36,695 nt of DNA, from the IMG/VR virus record IMGVR_UViG_2851938318_000015; one strand, 5' to 3'. The notes under the pieces were generated by a model. The model was given only the letters and a program-made list of their open reading frames with translations, did no database searches and was not told where the DNA came from. Both the position numbers and the translations under genes were made by a program. The stretch comes from a virus (lineage: Duplodnaviria > Heunggongvirae > Uroviricota > Caudoviricetes). Of this stretch, positions 1-7,873 are shown piece by piece (position 1 is the stretch's first letter; each line of letters begins with the position of its first letter).

Positions 1-708
1 ATGTGGGTCAATAAGTATATTGACGATTGCACTGATGAGGATTTAAACGATCGTGACTTTATTGCATCAGTTGTTGACCGGGCTATTTTTCATTTCGCGA
101 TTAATAGTATATGTAATCCTGGGGATAATAAAGATGCAATGCCCATTGAACAATGTACTTTTGATGTAGAAAATAAGAATGACCTTCCCTCCACGGTTCA
201 GCTATTTTATGAGGAATCTAAGGATAATGAACCTTTAGCGAATATACATTTTCAAGCAATAGGTTCTGGTTTTTTAACGTTTGTTAATGCCTGCCAGGAA
301 CATGATGACAACAGCTTAAAATTATTTGCTTCGCTGTTAATTTCACTTTCATATTCTAGTGCCTACGCAGATTTATCAGAAACAGTGTATATTAATGAAA
401 ATAATGAGAGCTACCTGAAAGCTCAGTTTGAAAAATTATCTCAACGTGATATGAAGAAGTACCTGGGAGAGATGAAGCGTCTGGCTGATGGGGGAGAAAT
501 GAATTTTGATGGCTATCTGGATAAGATGTCACATCTGGTGAATGAAGGAACGCTCGATCCTGATATTTTAAGCAAAATGCGAGATGCTGCACCACAATTA
601 ATTAGCTTCGCGAAGTCGTTTGACCCAACCTCAAAGGAAGAGATTAAAATACTTACAGACACTTCTAAATTAATTTATGATTTGTTCGGGGTTAAATCGG
701 AGAAATAA
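1..708 (+). CDS. Hypothetical protein, low-GC; possibly the host gene upstream of dusA (yjbM-like)
   Basis: Complete 235-aa ORF starting at base 1, followed by a hairpin plus T-run terminator at 750-778. Lies directly upstream of a dusA 5' fragment; I recall yjbM as the 235-aa K-12 neighbour of dusA, but the identity is from memory of gene order and length, not sequence recognition. Confidence 0.4.
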   Translation: MWVNKYIDDCTDEDLNDRDFIASVVDRAIFHFAINSICNPGDNKDAMPIEQCTFDVENKNDLPSTVQLFYEESKDNEPLANIHFQAIGSGFLTFVNACQEHDDNSLKLFASLLISLSYSSAYADLSETVYINENNESYLKAQFEKLSQRDMKKYLGEMKRLADGGEMNFDGYLDKMSHLVNEGTLDPDILSKMRDAAPQLISFAKSFDPTSKEEIKILTDTSKLIYDLFGVKSEK

Positions 709-749
709 TATGTGAAGTTCTTCGATAGTATGGAAGGCATTATATAAAA

Positions 750-778
750 GGACCCAATATTTATTGGGTTCTTTTTTC
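750..778 (+). terminator. Intrinsic terminator after the first ORF
   Basis: Inverted repeat acccaata / tattgggt followed by a T-run. Confidence 0.5.
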
Positions 779-1070
779 TCTATCAATGCTATTAGCAGGG
801 AGATATATCACCAGAGTTTAATGTGTGATTTTTTATTTATCGTCGAACCTGGATTGTTTATCATTGGCCTTAACAAAGTTAACGGCTAATAAGATTATTT
901 CCATCACTTCGTGAGAGCTTCATGCCTTGAGAGGATCTCAATTTTCTTTTGCAATGAGACAGGCGCTTCCTGTTGTTATGGTATAGTACCCCGCTATTGA
1001 GCCTCCTGAATAGTGATGCTGAATAACATAACCCCATGATATATCGATAAAATAATCTCTACATTTGAAA

Positions 1071-1193
1071 ATGCACGGTAATTCTGAAATGCAAAAAATC
1101 AACCAAACCAGCGCAATGCCTGAAAAAACTGACGTTCACTGGAGTGGTCGGTTTAGCGTTGCACCAATGCTCGATAGGATGTACCGTTTTTGA
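1071..1193 (+). pseudogene. dusA: 5' fragment of tRNA-dihydrouridine synthase A (dusA), interrupted after about 32 codons
   Basis: Short ORF translating MHGNSEMQKINQTSAMPEKTDVHWSGRFSVAPMLD, then RMYRF and a stop. The SVAPMLD stretch matches the conserved DusA N-terminal motif (SVAPMLDWTDRH...); similarity is lost after the LD codons at about 1166. Confidence 0.55.
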
Positions 1194-1318
1194 AAAACAA
1201 ATAGTTATATACTTTGTGGGAGCCTATTGGGAACCCGGCGTTTTCATTTCAAGGTGTAATCCATACGCGGCTTAAGAATGAGATATAATGCGACTTTTAG
1301 TGTTCCGCTTGAGAGGCC

Positions 1319-1855
1319 ATGATGCTTACCCTGGACGAGATAGGTCAATCAGTACGTAACAATATCCAGTTGATTATTGATCATGTCGGCTTACCTCTTG
1401 CTGTTGGTCCGCTCAGTGATGATGATTACAAGATTCTGTGTGGTGGCTATGGTGAGCTTGAATGGGACTATGCGTTAAGTACCTATGGCAACTCCAGAGA
1501 AAAGTATGAGTTCTGCATAAAACTTGTTCAGCAAGGTCGGGTTCAGGGAATACCATCAGGAGCAGCAATTTGTGTTTATGGGGTTGAAGAAAACATCTTT
1601 CGTATCCATATGATCGAAAGGTTTTCTAGAGAAGATGAATCTCACCCATTGAAAGGGCGCATGGTTTTACTCACTCTTATGAGTGCTTTTATATTTTGTA
1701 AAGCTGTTGAATGTAAAGTTGTCCACATTGTAGAGCCAGTACCAGAACTGGTGCAGTATTACGAGTCTTTTGGTTTCCGCATGGAACAGTGCGGTTATGT
1801 GATGTCGGCAGTCATTGATGAGCTGCAGGATATCTTTCTTAAATTTGCTCAGTAG
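1319..1855 (+). CDS. Hypothetical protein, 178 aa; possible GNAT-like acyltransferase fold (weak)
   Basis: Clean ORF just inside the putative junction. The segments HPLKGRMVLLTLMSAF and YYESFGF loosely resemble GNAT motifs A and B; no family assigned with confidence. Confidence 0.35.
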   Translation: MMLTLDEIGQSVRNNIQLIIDHVGLPLAVGPLSDDDYKILCGGYGELEWDYALSTYGNSREKYEFCIKLVQQGRVQGIPSGAAICVYGVEENIFRIHMIERFSREDESHPLKGRMVLLTLMSAFIFCKAVECKVVHIVEPVPELVQYYESFGFRMEQCGYVMSAVIDELQDIFLKFAQ

Positions 1856-2051: not shown

Positions 2052-2225
2052 ATGAAAGATCAAAAAGCAACCAAGCCACAGGTTAAGTTCGACACAATGA
2101 AAGCATTCGCAGGTATGGGTGCTGCTGTTGAAGTTCTGATGAAGGCTGCTCCTAATGCGTTCACTCACGCTACTGTCTCTGGTAAAGAGCAGCAGGGTAA
2201 GCTTCGTCGTCGCAAAGCAGCATGA
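2052..2225 (+). CDS. Small hypothetical protein, 57 aa, basic C-terminus
   Basis: ATG at 2052 preceded by GGGAG about 8 nt upstream; translates MKDQKATKPQVKFDTMKAFAGMGAAVEVLMKAAPNAFTHATVSGKEQQGKLRRRKAA; followed by a strong terminator. Below the 60-aa cutoff of the supplied ORF track. Confidence 0.35.
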   Translation: MKDQKATKPQVKFDTMKAFAGMGAAVEVLMKAAPNAFTHATVSGKEQQGKLRRRKAA

Positions 2226-2272: not shown

Positions 2273-2533
2273 TTAGTGATGTTCTTTGTCCTTCTGTTTG
2301 ACTGTTCTGACCTGTTCCCACTCGATACGTCCTTCTTCTCGCCTTTTGTCTATGTATTCCGCAAGATCTTGAATATTGATGCAACGTTTTGCTTTTTGTG
2401 ATGTGCCGATGCGATATGTTGGAACGGGCAACTTACAAGCGTTTGCTTTTGCTTCTGCCGTGGCTGGACTCATACCAAAGTACTTTTGGCTAACTGCTGA
2501 GAGTTCAATGTTTGGGGTATTGAATTCAGCCAT
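2273..2533 (-). CDS. Phage DNA-binding protein, PrtN / excisionase-like family
   Basis: 86-aa ORF (MAEFNTPNIELSAVSQKYFGMSPATAEAKANACKLPVPTYRIGTSQKAKR...) resembling the small PrtN/excisionase-like HTH proteins of lambdoid prophages; its start codon lies 7 bp from the IS end. Confidence 0.5.
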   Translation of the reverse strand: MAEFNTPNIELSAVSQKYFGMSPATAEAKANACKLPVPTYRIGTSQKAKRCINIQDLAEYIDKRREEGRIEWEQVRTVKQKDKEHH

Positions 2534-2539
2534 CAGTAT

Positions 2540-3310
2540 GAACCGCCCCGGGTTTCCTGGAGAGTGTTTTATCTGTGAACTCAGGCTGCCAGATCATCGT
2601 TTCCGATGGAAGCATAATAAGCTTTTTCTGCTTCTGCCGGAGGAGTATGGCCCAGCCTTCCCAGCAATCGTCGATTGTTATACCAGTCCACCCACGTTAG
2701 TGTGGCCAGTTCCACTTCTGCACGGTTTTTCCAGCTCTTACGGTGTATTACCTCCGCTTTGTAAAGACCATTGATGCTCTCAGCCATCGCGTTGTCATAC
2801 GAGTCGCCTGTACTCCCTGTTGATGCCAGTAATCCGGCTTCTTTTAGTCGCTCCGTATAGGCCAGTGACACATACTGAGAGCCTTTATCGCTGTGATGGA
2901 TGGTGCCAGACGGACGACGGGCCCACAACGCCTGCTCCAGCGCATCCAGCACGAATGTCGTTTCCATAGACGATGAGACCCGCCACCCCACGATGTATCC
3001 GGCAAACACATCAATGATAAACGCCACATAGACGAAGCCCTGCCATGTGCTGACGTAAGTAAAATCAGCCACCCACAGCTGGTCAGGTCGTTCTGCCACG
3101 AACTGACGGTTTACGCGGTCGCCTGCGGCAACGGCTTTCCGGCTGATGGTCGTACGGACCTTTTTACCCCGGAGAACACCGGCAAGTCCCATAACCGCCA
3201 TGAGACGTGCCACTGTACATCTGGCCACCCTGATTCCTTCCCGTAACAACTGACGCCAGACTTTACGCACACCGTACACCTGATGATTTTCATCGTATAC
3301 GCGCTGTATC
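2540..3310 (-). mobile_element. Truncated IS3-family insertion sequence (IS629/IS1203-like), 3' portion only
   Basis: Terminal inverted repeat TGAACCGCCCCGGGTTTCCTGGAGAGTGTTTTATCTGTGAACTCA beginning at 2540; orfB-like reading frame on the minus strand; similarity ends near 3310 with no orfA. Element name recalled from memory. Confidence 0.7.
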
Positions 3311-3990: not shown

Positions 3991-4743
3991 ATGAACCTTG
4001 AAGCCTTACCGAAATATTACTCCCCGAAATCTCCAAAACTGAGCGATGACGCACCGGCGACAGGCTCTGGTGGTTTAACAATTACGGATGTGATGGCTGC
4101 GCAGGGGATGGTGCAGTCAAAAGCACCGCTTGGGTTTGCTTTATTCCTGGCAAAAGTTGGTGTTCAGGATCCTCAGTTTGCGATTGAAGGTCTGCTCAAT
4201 TACGCGATGGCACTGGATAACCCGACATTGAATAAATTGAGTGAAGAAACCCGGCTACAGATCATTCCTTACCTTGTGAATTTTGCCTTTGCTGATTATT
4301 CCAGGTCTGCGGCAAGTAAGGCTCGCTGTGAGCATTGTGCTGGTACTGGATTTCATAATGTATTGCGCGAGGTGGTGAAACACTCCAGAAGCGGGGAATC
4401 TGTTATTAAGGAAGAGTGGGTGAAGGAACTATGTCAGCATTGTCATGGTAAGGGAGAAGTCAGCACAGCATGCAGAGGGTGCAAGGGTAAAGGTATTGTC
4501 CTGGATGAAAAAAGAACCCGGCTTCATGGCACGCCTGTTTATAAGGTTTGTGGGCGTTGCAATGGAAACCGGTTTAGCCGTTTACCAACCACACTGGCGC
4601 GGCTTCATGTCCAGAAGCTGGTACCAGACCTGACGGATTATCAGTGGTACAAAGGATATGCAGATGTCATTGATAAACTGGTTACAAAGTGCTGGCAGGA
4701 AGAAGCATATGCAGAGATACAATTGAGAAAGGTGACAAGATAA
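3991..4743 (+). CDS. Q: Late-gene antitermination protein Q (phage 82/Qin-type)
   Basis: MNLEALPKYYSPKSPKLSDDAPATG... N-terminus and a Cys-rich zinc-binding region (CEHCAGTG...CQHCHGKG...CRGCKGKG); placed upstream of tRNAs and the lysis genes. Confidence 0.75.
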   Translation: MNLEALPKYYSPKSPKLSDDAPATGSGGLTITDVMAAQGMVQSKAPLGFALFLAKVGVQDPQFAIEGLLNYAMALDNPTLNKLSEETRLQIIPYLVNFAFADYSRSAASKARCEHCAGTGFHNVLREVVKHSRSGESVIKEEWVKELCQHCHGKGEVSTACRGCKGKGIVLDEKRTRLHGTPVYKVCGRCNGNRFSRLPTTLARLHVQKLVPDLTDYQWYKGYADVIDKLVTKCWQEEAYAEIQLRKVTR

Positions 4744-4850
4744 ATGGTTTTCGCCGAAGATGACGACATGATGCTTGCATTTTTCAAAAAATATGGATAA
4801 GATTTTCCCAACGATGGGCTTTGTATGTCTACCGTTGATAAGATTTAAGA

Positions 4851-4877
4851 ACCCGCCGATGCGCGGGTTTTTTTGTA
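4851..4877 (+). terminator. Intrinsic terminator candidate downstream of Q (pR'/tR' region)
   Basis: cccgccgatgcgcggg hairpin followed by a 7-T run. Confidence 0.45.
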
Positions 4878-5054
4878 CCCAGAATCCTGTGAGCTATACG
4901 GAAAGTACACAGAAAGGAAGGTGCGACCACAATTAATAACAAAATCTTAAAAATTGCACATGGCACTATTAGTTTTCTAAATATTGTGTATTTTTTGTAT
5001 TGCAGGATGACCCTGTAACGAATTTTGCGTAACAGCATTTTGCTCTACGAGTTT

Positions 5055-5084
5055 GCCAGCCTCCCCCAGTGGCTGGCTTTTTTA
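5055..5084 (+). terminator. Intrinsic terminator candidate (tR'-like)
   Basis: gccagcc / ggctggc 7-bp stem with a 9-nt loop, followed by a T-run. Confidence 0.5.
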
Positions 5085-5089
5085 TGTCT

Positions 5090-5205
5090 GTAGCGTCAAA
5101 GCAGCAATGTCGCTGGGGCGTCGTGCAATTGGCGTTGAGCTGGAGACTGAACGTTTTGAGCAGACGGTCAGGGAAGTTCAGGATTTAGTCAGTCAGAACG
5201 GATGA
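5090..5205 (+). pseudogene. Possible C-terminal remnant of a DNA methyltransferase
   Basis: Short frame translating ...SLGRRAIGVELETERFEQTVREVQDLVSQNG, resembling the conserved C-terminal motif of N6/N4 DNA methylases; no upstream body present. Confidence 0.3.
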
Positions 5206-5245
5206 TATTGCAGGATTAGTTACGTACCGTTATTATCCTGCGCCC

Positions 5246-5321
5246 GGCCCTTTAGCTCAGTGGTGAGAGCGAGCGACTCATAATCGCCAGGTCGCTGGTT
5301 CAAATCCAGCAAGGGCCACCA
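5246..5321 (+). tRNA. ileZ: tRNA with CAU anticodon (ileX/ileZ-like tRNA-Ile2, or Met)
   Basis: Manual cloverleaf fold: acceptor ggccctt/aagggcc, D-stem gctc/gagc, anticodon loop ctCATaa, T-loop ttcaaat, 3' CCA. Close to my recollection of E. coli ileX. Confidence 0.8.
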
Positions 5322-5330
5322 TATCACATA

Positions 5331-5407
5331 CCGCCATTAGCTCATCGGGATAGAGCGTCAGCCTTCGAAGCTGGCTGTGCGGGGTTCAAGTCCCCGATGG
5401 CGGTCCA
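5331..5407 (+). tRNA. tRNA-Arg, anticodon read as UCG
   Basis: Cloverleaf: acceptor ccgccat/atggcgg, anticodon stem tcagc/gctgg, loop ctTCGaa, T-loop ttcaagt, CCA. Anticodon read by hand. Confidence 0.7.
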
Positions 5408-5420
5408 TTATCAGCATCAT

Positions 5421-5497
5421 GCGTTGTTAGCTCAGCCGGACAGAGCAATTGCCTTCTAAGCAATCGGTCACTGGTTCGAATCCAGTACAACGCGCCA
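5421..5497 (+). tRNA. tRNA-Arg, anticodon UCU (decodes rare AGA)
   Basis: Cloverleaf: acceptor gcgttgt/acaacgc, anticodon stem attgc/gcaat, loop ctTCTaa, T-loop ttcgaat, CCA. Confidence 0.75.
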
Positions 5498-6022
5498 CAC
5501 CACACTTATCTGCCCTGACTCTCTTTTGCGGGCTTTTTATTACAGGAAAGACACCGGACAGTGAAATGTTAAATGCCTCACAATTCAGGTAGTCGACTGT
5601 TGCCTGACATGCTGAGCGTTTGTTAAAAAAATCCTGCATGATGAATCCCCCTGGGCGGCGGGGCATAATGACAGATGTTTGGTTGCGTATTGTATAGGCA
5701 AGTTGCGGATTCTGTCTGGTCATTGCAGAATTCACCGGGAGGCACCCGGCATCATGCTGTATACAGAGATTAGGCATATATCCAGGCTCCTCATCGCAGG
5801 AGCCTTTTTACATGCAAAAAAAGCCCGAGTAGGTTCGGGCAACAGCATGAGATACTTGCATTGTCATTTTTATCGTGTGGATTTTAACCAGGGTTTATCA
5901 GGCTGCGCAACTGCGTGGCCTTTTTTCATTTCTTGGGCTGTAGTCCCCGTGTGTCATTCAGGCTTCCGGACTACAGCCCACTCCATATCTGATTTAATAC
6001 ACTATCCCGGCCGGGAGGAATA

Positions 6023-7873
6023 ATGACATTTAAACATTATGATGTTGTCAGGGCGGCGTCGCCGTCAGACCTTGCGGAAAAGCTGACACACAAACTGAAA
6101 GAGGGCTGGCAGCCATACGGCGGACCGGTTGCCATTACGCCGTACACACTGATGCAGGCGGTGGCTATTGAAGGAGAGCCACAGGTCGGCCCTTCATCTG
6201 AGCCGGATTGGTACTACGTCATCGTACTGGCCGGGCAGTCCAATGCCATGGCTTACGGTGAAGGGCTTCCGCTGCCGGATTCATACGATGCTCCGGATCC
6301 GCGCATTAAACAGCTGGCGCGCCGCAGTACAGTTACGCCGGGTGGGGCTGCCTGCAGATATAACGATATTATTCCGGCCGACCACTGCCTGCATGATGTG
6401 CAGGATATGAGTACGCTGAATCATCCGAAGGCAGACCTGAGCAAAGGGCAGTACGGCTGTGTCGGCCAGGGCTTACATATTGCCAAAAAACTGCTTCCGT
6501 ATATCCCGAATAACGCGGGGATCCTGCTGGTACCATGCTGTCGTGGTGGTTCGGCATTCACCCAGGGCGCGGAGGGGACATTCAGTGCGGACGCGGGGGC
6601 CAGCCAGGATTCGGCGCGCTGGGGTGTGGGTAAACCGTTATATCAGGACCTGATTGCGCGCACTAAAGCTGCATTACAGAAGAACCCGAAAAATGTGTTG
6701 CTGGCGGTGTGCTGGATGCAGGGAGAGTTTGACATGAGCGCCGCCACCCACGCACAGCAACCTGCGCTGTTTACAGCCATGCTGGCACAGTTTCGTGCTG
6801 ACCTCTCCGTGTTTAACGCGCAGTGCCATGGTGGCAGTGCTGCAGATGTGCCGTGGATTTGTGGTGACACGACGTATTACTGGAAAAATACATACGCTAC
6901 CCAGTACGACACCGTGTACGGCGGGTATAAAAACAGGGAGAGTGAGGGCGTTTATTTTGTGCCCTTCATGACAGACGGTAACGGCGTCAATACCGCCACT
7001 AACGCGCCGGCAGAAGATCCGGATATTCCGGCATCAGGATATTACGGTGCGGCATCGAGAACGAATGGAAACCAGGTATCATCAAACCGCCCGACACATT
7101 TCAGTTCATGGGCGCGCAGGAGCATTATTCCGGATCGTCTGGCAACCGCTATTCTGAACGCAGCCGGGCGCACCTCAGCCTTCATCAGTGGTAAGGCACC
7201 GGAAATCAAACCCTCGCCCGGCGGCAACACGCCATCGGGTCCGTCTGCAGATACGTCCGTTCGCACAATCTCCCTGCTGCCGGCAGCCGGAGAGGCTGCT
7301 GCGCAGGGCTGGAGCATTAAGGATGGCGGAATTCAGTTGTCAGATGGTGTATTTAAGATCACCAAGCAGAGCAATAAAACCTGGTCCCTGACGCATCCGG
7401 TGGATGACGCAATTACCCTGCTGACACAGGGCGGCAGACTGACCTGTAAGTTCCGCCTGTCAGGCGCGCTGACCAACAATCAGTTCGGGCTGGGGATTTA
7501 TCTGTATACGGATGCTCCCGTTCCTGATGGTGTGGCGATGACGGGTACCGGTAATCCGTTCCTGATGTCGTACTTTACTCAGACCACTGACGGCAGAGTG
7601 AATCTGATGCATCACAGGAAAGCCGGAAACACGAAGCTGGGGGAGTTCGGCGATTACGGTAACGACTGGCAGACGCTGGAGCTGGTGTTCACCGCCGGCA
7701 GTGCCACGGTTACTCCGAAACTGAATGGAGTGGCTGGCCCGGCATTCCAGGTTATAAAAGACAGTCTGACACTGGGACTGAATGCGCTGACGCTGACGGA
7801 TGTTACAAAAAATGCAGCGTATGGCGTTGAGATAGAAAGTCTGGTGCTGGAGATAAATGCACCGGCAGCATAA
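6023..7873 (+). CDS. Prophage sialate O-acetylesterase (NanS-p-like; DUF1737 N-terminus plus SGNH esterase domain)
   Basis: 616-aa ORF starting MTFKHYDVVRAASPSDLAEKL... (DUF1737-like) followed by VIVLAGQSNAMAYGEG (SGNH-type GQSN motif); sits between Q/tRNAs and the lysis cassette, where Stx phages carry stx and nanS-p. Confidence 0.65.
   Translation: MTFKHYDVVRAASPSDLAEKLTHKLKEGWQPYGGPVAITPYTLMQAVAIEGEPQVGPSSEPDWYYVIVLAGQSNAMAYGEGLPLPDSYDAPDPRIKQLARRSTVTPGGAACRYNDIIPADHCLHDVQDMSTLNHPKADLSKGQYGCVGQGLHIAKKLLPYIPNNAGILLVPCCRGGSAFTQGAEGTFSADAGASQDSARWGVGKPLYQDLIARTKAALQKNPKNVLLAVCWMQGEFDMSAATHAQQPALFTAMLAQFRADLSVFNAQCHGGSAADVPWICGDTTYYWKNTYATQYDTVYGGYKNRESEGVYFVPFMTDGNGVNTATNAPAEDPDIPASGYYGAASRTNGNQVSSNRPTHFSSWARRSIIPDRLATAILNAAGRTSAFISGKAPEIKPSPGGNTPSGPSADTSVRTISLLPAAGEAAAQGWSIKDGGIQLSDGVFKITKQSNKTWSLTHPVDDAITLLTQGGRLTCKFRLSGALTNNQFGLGIYLYTDAPVPDGVAMTGTGNPFLMSYFTQTTDGRVNLMHHRKAGNTKLGEFGDYGNDWQTLELVFTAGSATVTPKLNGVAGPAFQVIKDSLTLGLNALTLTDVTKNAAYGVEIESLVLEINAPAA

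Follow-up and report, generated by a model that had tools for sequence, protein, structure and literature searches.

A displaced dusA 5' end very probably marks the integrase-distal junction of an apparently degraded lambdoid prophage in Escherichia coli

Near the left end of a 36,695-nucleotide stretch of viral DNA (referred to in its entirety as the window here), a 40-codon open reading frame (ORF) starts like dusA and then breaks off, which raises the question of what separated this gene start from the rest of its gene. The ORF runs from an ATG at 1071 to a stop codon at 1191-1193 and encodes MHGNSEMQKINQTSAMPEKTDVHWSGRFSVAPMLD, followed by RMYRF and the stop. We aligned the region to the yjbM-dusA region of E. 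coli C7, an empty-site genome in which the yjbM-dusA-pspG-qorA locus is intact. Window positions 1-1174, which span a yjbM-like gene, the region upstream of dusA, and dusA itself up to nt 104, are host DNA and match C7 with 99.5% identity over 1,174 nt, well beyond what chance would give (E = 0). From 1061 to 1174 the identity to C7 is 100%, and past 1174 the two sequences are unrelated. Because the identity runs to 1174 and is then lost, the ORF represents a genuine dusA start with its native upstream region: its first 35 codons, through the motif SVAPMLD, are native and are fused to five foreign codons. The initial annotation, which had read the ORF as a DusA N terminus that diverges after SVAPMLD and had proposed an alignment to dusA of an insertion-free E. 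coli, is borne out on this point. We conclude that 1071-1193 is almost certainly the integrase-distal host-phage junction (attR in the convention of PMC6328086) of a lambdoid prophage that was integrated into the 5' end of E. coli dusA by a tyrosine recombinase, a junction that now appears to be a fossil.

The breakpoint is not peculiar to the comparison with C7. With window positions 700-1700 as the megablast query, 4,371 of 5,426 complete E. coli genomes gave a match. Among the matches listed, those from genomes annotated with an intact dusA end at query position 475, corresponding to window position 1174, and only 334 genomes match past this position; empty attB sites are common among E. 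coli genomes. In the RefSeq annotation of an identical genome, PGAP labels 1071-1175 as a tRNA-dihydrouridine synthase that is incomplete and missing its C terminus. The gene upstream had been described as apparently intact, in agreement with the end-to-end match of its 235-amino-acid ORF to Pfam DUF2713, and the same gene lies upstream of the intact dusA in C7. PGAP places a longer, "frameshifted" DUF2713 gene here, and since it does so in genomes both with and without the prophage, the insertion does not account for this label. The pseudogene call seems to stem from the annotation model rather than from the insertion, given that the 235-amino-acid ORF alone fits the Pfam model end to end. 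A terminator-like hairpin of yjbM is located at 746-775. A promoter scan of the native dusA upstream region returned only a weak promoter-like match at 870-898, which is not above chance, and scans ahead of the native and the phage-borne dusA starts revealed no consensus-like sigma-70 promoter.

Whether the sequence past 1174 is that of a phage can be read from a free relative. A predicted attP of 1,015 nt was assembled from the integrase-side sequence, taken as far as the core, and window positions 1175-1700, and we searched for it in a phage collection. It is present in one piece, at 98.9% identity, in Enterobacteria phage mEp460 (JQ182728, positions 24104-25118), whose gene order is side tail fibre, DinI, int, att region, 178-amino-acid gene, 57-amino-acid gene, PrtN-like gene, and exo. 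The att neighborhood of mEp460 corresponds to both ends of the window's prophage joined together, and the phage's own dusA-like ORF ends in the same RMYRF tail. Because the predicted attP is contiguous in this sequenced free phage, the point of divergence is the phage-host junction, with phage sequence from 1175 onward, as expected from the earlier proposal that this is the distal end of an integrated element. The whole attP module of mEp460 (JQ182728/NC_019716), with DinI, int, the dusA-like start, core, P' arm, GNAT-fold gene, 57-amino-acid gene, PrtN-like gene, and exo, is alike at this 98.9% level. The two elements differ in that mEp460 is a free, complete phage of 44.5 kb, whereas the window's element lacks the early region behind the xis-like gene and has an IS1203 remnant instead. 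Moreover, type III secretion system (T3SS) effector genes adjoin DinI in the window's element, and mEp460 lacks them at that position.

The second junction and the integrase, both outside the window, are known from an identical public genome, that of E. coli RM9131 (NZ_CP028429.1, 4829798-4866492), to which the window shows 0 mismatches over 36,695 bases. The last base of the window is the last base of a DinI-like gene in RM9131, and 62 bp separate the right edge of the window from a tyrosine recombinase gene, on the minus strand and annotated as frameshifted. Upstream of the int start, at a distance of 88 bp and in divergent orientation, is a full-length dusA of 345 amino acids, followed by pspG, qorA, and dnaB, as at the empty site, and the close relative E2863 has the same arrangement. 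An integrase and a reconstituted dusA had been predicted beyond the right edge, and both are there in RM9131, the former frameshifted and the latter at its full 345 amino acids. The first 104 nt of this hybrid dusA are phage-borne and share 85 of 104 nt and 26 of 35 residues with the native copy. The 100 nt upstream of the phage-borne start are unrelated to the native upstream sequence (23 of 100 identical). Over its full length, the hybrid matches the Pfam Dus family.

An intact orthologue of the integrase, from O157:H7 LSU61 (365 amino acids), matches only Phage_integrase (PF00589) in Pfam, and alignment to XerA (5hxy) assigns R222, H306, R309, H332, and Y342 as its catalytic residues. The RM9131 gene carries an extra T at nt 762, which causes a +1 frameshift at codon 254 and separates R222 from the other four catalytic residues; as judged by sequence, the integrase is a pseudogene in this genome. 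Its commonest plasmid relatives are Rci proteins, the integrase beside the PilV shufflon on IncI plasmids, with ∼26% identity over ∼80% of the length, and the mEp460 record notes the CDD model INT_Rci. Relatives from other species were collected in 50 loci, of which 33 have a full-length dusA upstream and divergent, in most cases at a distance of ∼90 bp. These int-dusA loci come from Kosakonia, Morganella, Proteus, Xenorhabdus, Serratia, Vibrio, Shewanella, Idiomarina, Aeromonas, a Hyphomicrobiales metagenome-assembled genome, and others. Within E. coli, 725 of the 5,426 complete genomes (∼13%) carry the int-dusA junction.

To place the crossover, we compared four sequences in one alignment: attB (C7), attP (mEp460), the window junction, and the integrase-side junction (E2863, LSU61, and RM9131). 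The alignment shows the reciprocal pattern expected of site-specific recombination between attB and attP. attP and attB mismatch at 1166 and at 1175, and the integrase-side dusA is identical to the host dusA from the window equivalent of 1167 onward. Since the window junction is host sequence up to 1174 and the integrase-side dusA is host sequence from 1167, the exchange must fall within ATGCTCGA; in other words, this comparison would place strand exchange inside the 8 bp of 1167-1174 and defines one prophage end with a precision of 8 bp. The core sits in the codons for P-M-L-D, and the last host-identical nucleotide is nt 104 of dusA, in the stretch that encodes A-P-M-L-D, the same position as in the published attB. 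The initial annotation had put the boundary at about 1166; the junction itself stands, and the position is off by 1 to 8 bp, given a crossover in 1167-1174 and host identity up to 1174. Similarly, the direct repeat of an approximately 20-bp core that it anticipated is present at the second junction, yet only 8 bp of it are perfect: the 21-mers at the two junctions, GCACCAATGCTCGATAGGATG and GCTCCTATGCTCGACTGGACG, agree at 16 of 21 positions around the 8-bp perfect core. No second att copy was found inside the window, which fits the location of the other junction outside it.

These observations can be joined into a scheme of integration. The attP would bring its own dusA-like start, consisting of its own upstream region and 104 nt encoding MHDNHEAQKINQTSVMPEKTGVYWNSRFSIAPMLD. 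Strand exchange, the chemistry of which we infer, would take place in the core ATGCTCGA. The phage-borne start would thereby join the body of the host dusA in frame beside int, yielding a full-length hybrid DusA, and the host promoter and first 35 codons would be stranded ∼37 kb away, running into five phage codons and a stop. The hybrid DusA is presumably functional, and the phage-borne start would then explain how dusA function is kept despite the insertion. Integrases that target tRNA genes (P4, P22, and HP1 types) follow a similar logic, in which attP copies the displaced part of the target, so that gene function survives and the far junction retains a partial copy. These enzymes replace the 3' end of an RNA gene, whereas the replacement here concerns a protein-coding gene, at its 5' end and including its promoter. 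The features of the locus are listed in Table 1.

Table 1. Features of the window and of the adjoining integrase gene
Feature	Position	Strand	Remarks
yjbM-like DUF2713 protein, 235 aa	1-708	+	Pfam PF10897 over 1-235 of 235, E 1e-166
Native dusA upstream (promoter) region, unchanged by the insertion	709-1070	+	Inside the 1-1174 stretch, 99.5% to the empty-site genome
Displaced native dusA 5' end, codons 1-35	1071-1174	+	100% to C7 dusA; partial gene in PGAP
Common core ATGCTCGA, 8 bp	1167-1174		Largest segment common to attB, attP, and both junctions
Phage-encoded ORF tail (RMYRF and stop), first prophage bases	1175-1193	+	Identical to mEp460 attP downstream of the core
Integrase-distal attP arm (P' arm)	1175-1240		Common to otherwise different dusA prophages
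TGGGARCC, two direct copies 11 bp apart	1217-1235	+	Putative; candidate arm-type sites
Lambdoid prophage body, apparently defective	1175-36695		Total length 36,873 bp, of which 1,352 bp lie beyond the window
178-aa GNAT-fold protein (predicted), phage cargo (mEp460_023 homologue, phrog_4350)	1319-1855	+	AF2 model, Foldseek
57-aa partner ORF (phrog_2741)	2052-2225	+	Followed by a terminator-like hairpin, 2244-2269
PrtN-family excisionase-like gene	2273-2533	-	phrog_1300 "excisionase," E 3e-34; annotated as pyocin activator PrtN family
IS1203 (IS3-family) transposase remnant	2581-3309	-	RefSeq; mEp460 has exo and further early genes at this position
int (RM9131, outside the window)	36757-37855 (locus L005)	-	88 bp from the dusA start, divergent

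Two other explanations of the locus have to be weighed. The element might be an intact, inducible prophage that is still able to excise and restore the native dusA, as would befit the presence of an excisionase-like gene and of both att junctions, and its close relatives mEp460 and phage 1720a-02 are active phages. Against this stand the +1 frameshift that splits the active site of the integrase, the stretch between the xis-like gene and the DUF968/Q genes, which holds only an IS1203 remnant in place of the exo and early genes of mEp460, and the portal gene, annotated as frameshifted, with several other genes partial. We consider an excisable prophage very unlikely. Because the integrase is frameshifted and the early region lost, the element would be immobile, and the gene content points to a degraded prophage that no longer moves and whose junction is a fossil.

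The alternative that phage integration had no part in the truncation, and that an IS insertion, a deletion, or a segmental duplication left an ordinary dusA pseudogene beside a prophage by chance, has in its favor that an IS1203 remnant lies 1.4 kb away and that the PGAP label describes the fragment as an incomplete gene only. It is refuted by the sequence after the breakpoint, which is contiguous with the integrase-side sequence in a free phage. The second dusA start, in addition, is no duplicate of the first (82% identity, with unrelated upstream DNA) and is 98 to 99% identical to the phage's own copy, and the same breakpoint occurs in hundreds of genomes and coincides with the published att site. 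The probability of a chance pseudogene is in our view close to nil. Nothing that we met in this analysis contradicts the reading of 1071-1193 as an integration junction.

The system to which the junction belongs has been described before. Farrugia et al. (2015; PMC4482086) defined the dusA-specific integrases (DAIs), with insertions in the dusA 5' end in more than 200 bacteria, in which island sequence takes the place of the dusA 5' end, including the TIM barrel β1 strand; semiconserved att repeats extend over 21 bp, the closest characterised relative is Rci, and Table S1 of that work includes E. coli prophages at the dusA site (B171, EC4115, and others). The window's element shares with the DAI elements the insertion in the dusA 5' end, the element-supplied new 5' end, the position of int beside the rebuilt dusA, the ∼21-bp att repeats, and, probably, an Rci-related integrase. 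Nothing essential sets it apart, the copy in the window being a decayed lambdoid prophage with T3SS effectors and an inactivated integrase. In E. coli, Balasubramanian et al. (2019; PMC6328086) showed that the integration point of the Stx2d phage 1720a-02 lies 100 bp into dusA, with a core of 7 bases, and that the phage carries an in-frame dusA start of its own, and they detected its attP in vivo. Excision as a circle, which regenerates attP and the native dusA, has been shown experimentally for relatives (PMC4482086, PMC6328086). The integrase-side att region of 1720a-02 (Phi-stx2dact; KF030445; PMC6328086) is 99.8% identical to the one studied here, its int likewise adjoins the rebuilt dusA, and its 7-base core lies inside the same sequence (attB GCTCCCATGCTCGACTGGA in Citrobacter rodentium versus GCACCAATGCTCGACTGGA here). 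By contrast, 1720a-02 carries stx2 and is inducible, whereas the window's prophage appears defective and has no stx at the corresponding position, and the distal arms differ beyond the core, where the match ends. Since the 2015 study defined the system and the 2019 experiment demonstrated it in an E. coli Stx phage (PMC4482086, PMC6328086), our finding is an instance of a known system: the system, site, and core are already published, the fragment had already been flagged by PGAP, and the junction is an ordinary one. It offers a clean worked example of 5'-end-replacing integration for genome annotation and opens no new question.

The phage side of the junction contains sequence that is conserved beyond the closest relatives. 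Different dusA prophages have the first ∼60 nt past the core in common, up to about window position 1235, which is also where the matches of other prophages and phages (OkiPb01683, IR53017, SKA5, and Lys8385Vzw) end. This arm holds two copies of TGGGARCC, TGGGAGCC (1217-1224) and TGGGAACC (1228-1235), which are the only matches to this motif in the window; this count of 2 does not exceed the chance expectation of 2.9. The interval from the int start to the phage-borne dusA start holds three further copies, one in inverted orientation. In the int-dusA spacers of other species, an inverted-direct-direct layout was seen in most of the 30 that were inspected, with element-specific sequence (e.g., GGGGTGCT, GGTGTAC, and GGTGTCC). 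Phages from Morganella, Klebsiella, and Shewanella (n = 3) have their own motif on both arms, at both ends of the record. It is quite possible, and we put this forward tentatively on the strength of these motif patterns, that the flanking repeats are arm-type binding sites with element-specific recognition and that these Rci-like recombinases are heterobivalent in the style of lambda. To our knowledge, no arm-type sites have been described for dusA-specific integrases. The spacers themselves (∼2409-2500 in loci L006 to L055) show a triplet of an 8- to 9-nt motif, then an A-rich stretch and a conserved ATGCAC dusA start. An integrase scan of viral contigs, meant as a test of motif covariation, was uninformative, as it returned E. 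coli-type loci only (79 of 80 at 98 to 100% identity); the arm-motif comparison used phage records from other genera.

Apart from its ends, the prophage as annotated in RM9131 contains Q, three tRNAs, a SASA esterase, lysis, head, and tail genes, T3SS effectors, and DinI. A further 457 bp, from a 3'-5' exonuclease fragment (E2863 locus L001, 3516-3972), are present in E2863 and missing from the window at 2529-3309, so that the decay of this prophage differs between close strains. A tandem repeat of 162 bp (2.7 copies, 97% identity) is located at 17130-17560 (within 15604-18025), inside the portal gene. The region at 3991-7873 has a layout like that of Stx phages without the toxin genes: the Q antiterminator (3991-4743) is followed by a DNA methylase fragment, by three tRNAs at 5246-5497 with the anticodons CAT (Ile in RefSeq), TCG, and TCT, and by a 616-amino-acid esterase of the SASA family (NanS-p-like) at 6023-7873, and no stx-sized ORF was found between the Q region and this esterase. 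A cluster of T3SS effector genes occupies 32787-35945, at the integrase-proximal end, with a DUF1076 (NleG-like) fragment, espW (33385-34443, minus strand), a DUF1076 gene (34522-35172, minus strand), and espM2 (35355-35945). This cluster points to a host from an attaching-effacing E. coli lineage, and the element may be viewed as a degraded, locked-in carrier of T3SS effector genes (espW, espM2, and nleG-like).

The first phage gene after the junction encodes the 178-amino-acid protein, which is accompanied by the 57-amino-acid ORF. Neither protein has a family match in Pfam, NCBIfam, or PADLOC. A single-sequence AlphaFold prediction of the 178-amino-acid protein was unusable (pLDDT 52), and we used an alignment-based model instead (AF2 with 30 sequences, pLDDT 92.7). 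The top Foldseek matches of this model in the PDB are nearly all GNAT acetyltransferases (E ∼1e-6, TM scores of 0.5 to 0.6), and the protein is confidently predicted to adopt the GNAT acetyltransferase fold. The conserved two-gene cassette has 51 homologues, mostly from Enterobacterales. The gene is always accompanied by an ORF of 54 to 58 amino acids (57 here), and the pair is kept in seven other contexts. Downstream of a dusA remnant, it is also found in Shewanella, and in other prophages it lies downstream of Q, ahead of the holin, behind a cI-like gene, or within a tail cluster. We rejected, as a general rule, the idea of a host dusA promoter "swapped" so as to transcribe a cargo pair linked to the dusA att site, in view of the many other positions of the pair. 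Because it occupies so many other prophage positions, the pair is better regarded as a free-standing mobile moron than as part of the att machinery. A role of the cassette as a toxin-antitoxin or exclusion system is only a guess. In Shewanella frigidimarina (locus L057, ∼5390-5715), the edge of a prophage near dnaB-alr has two dusA-like 5' fragments, apparently in tandem, upstream of the GNAT-fold pair, and these may be the traces of successive integrations at one site.
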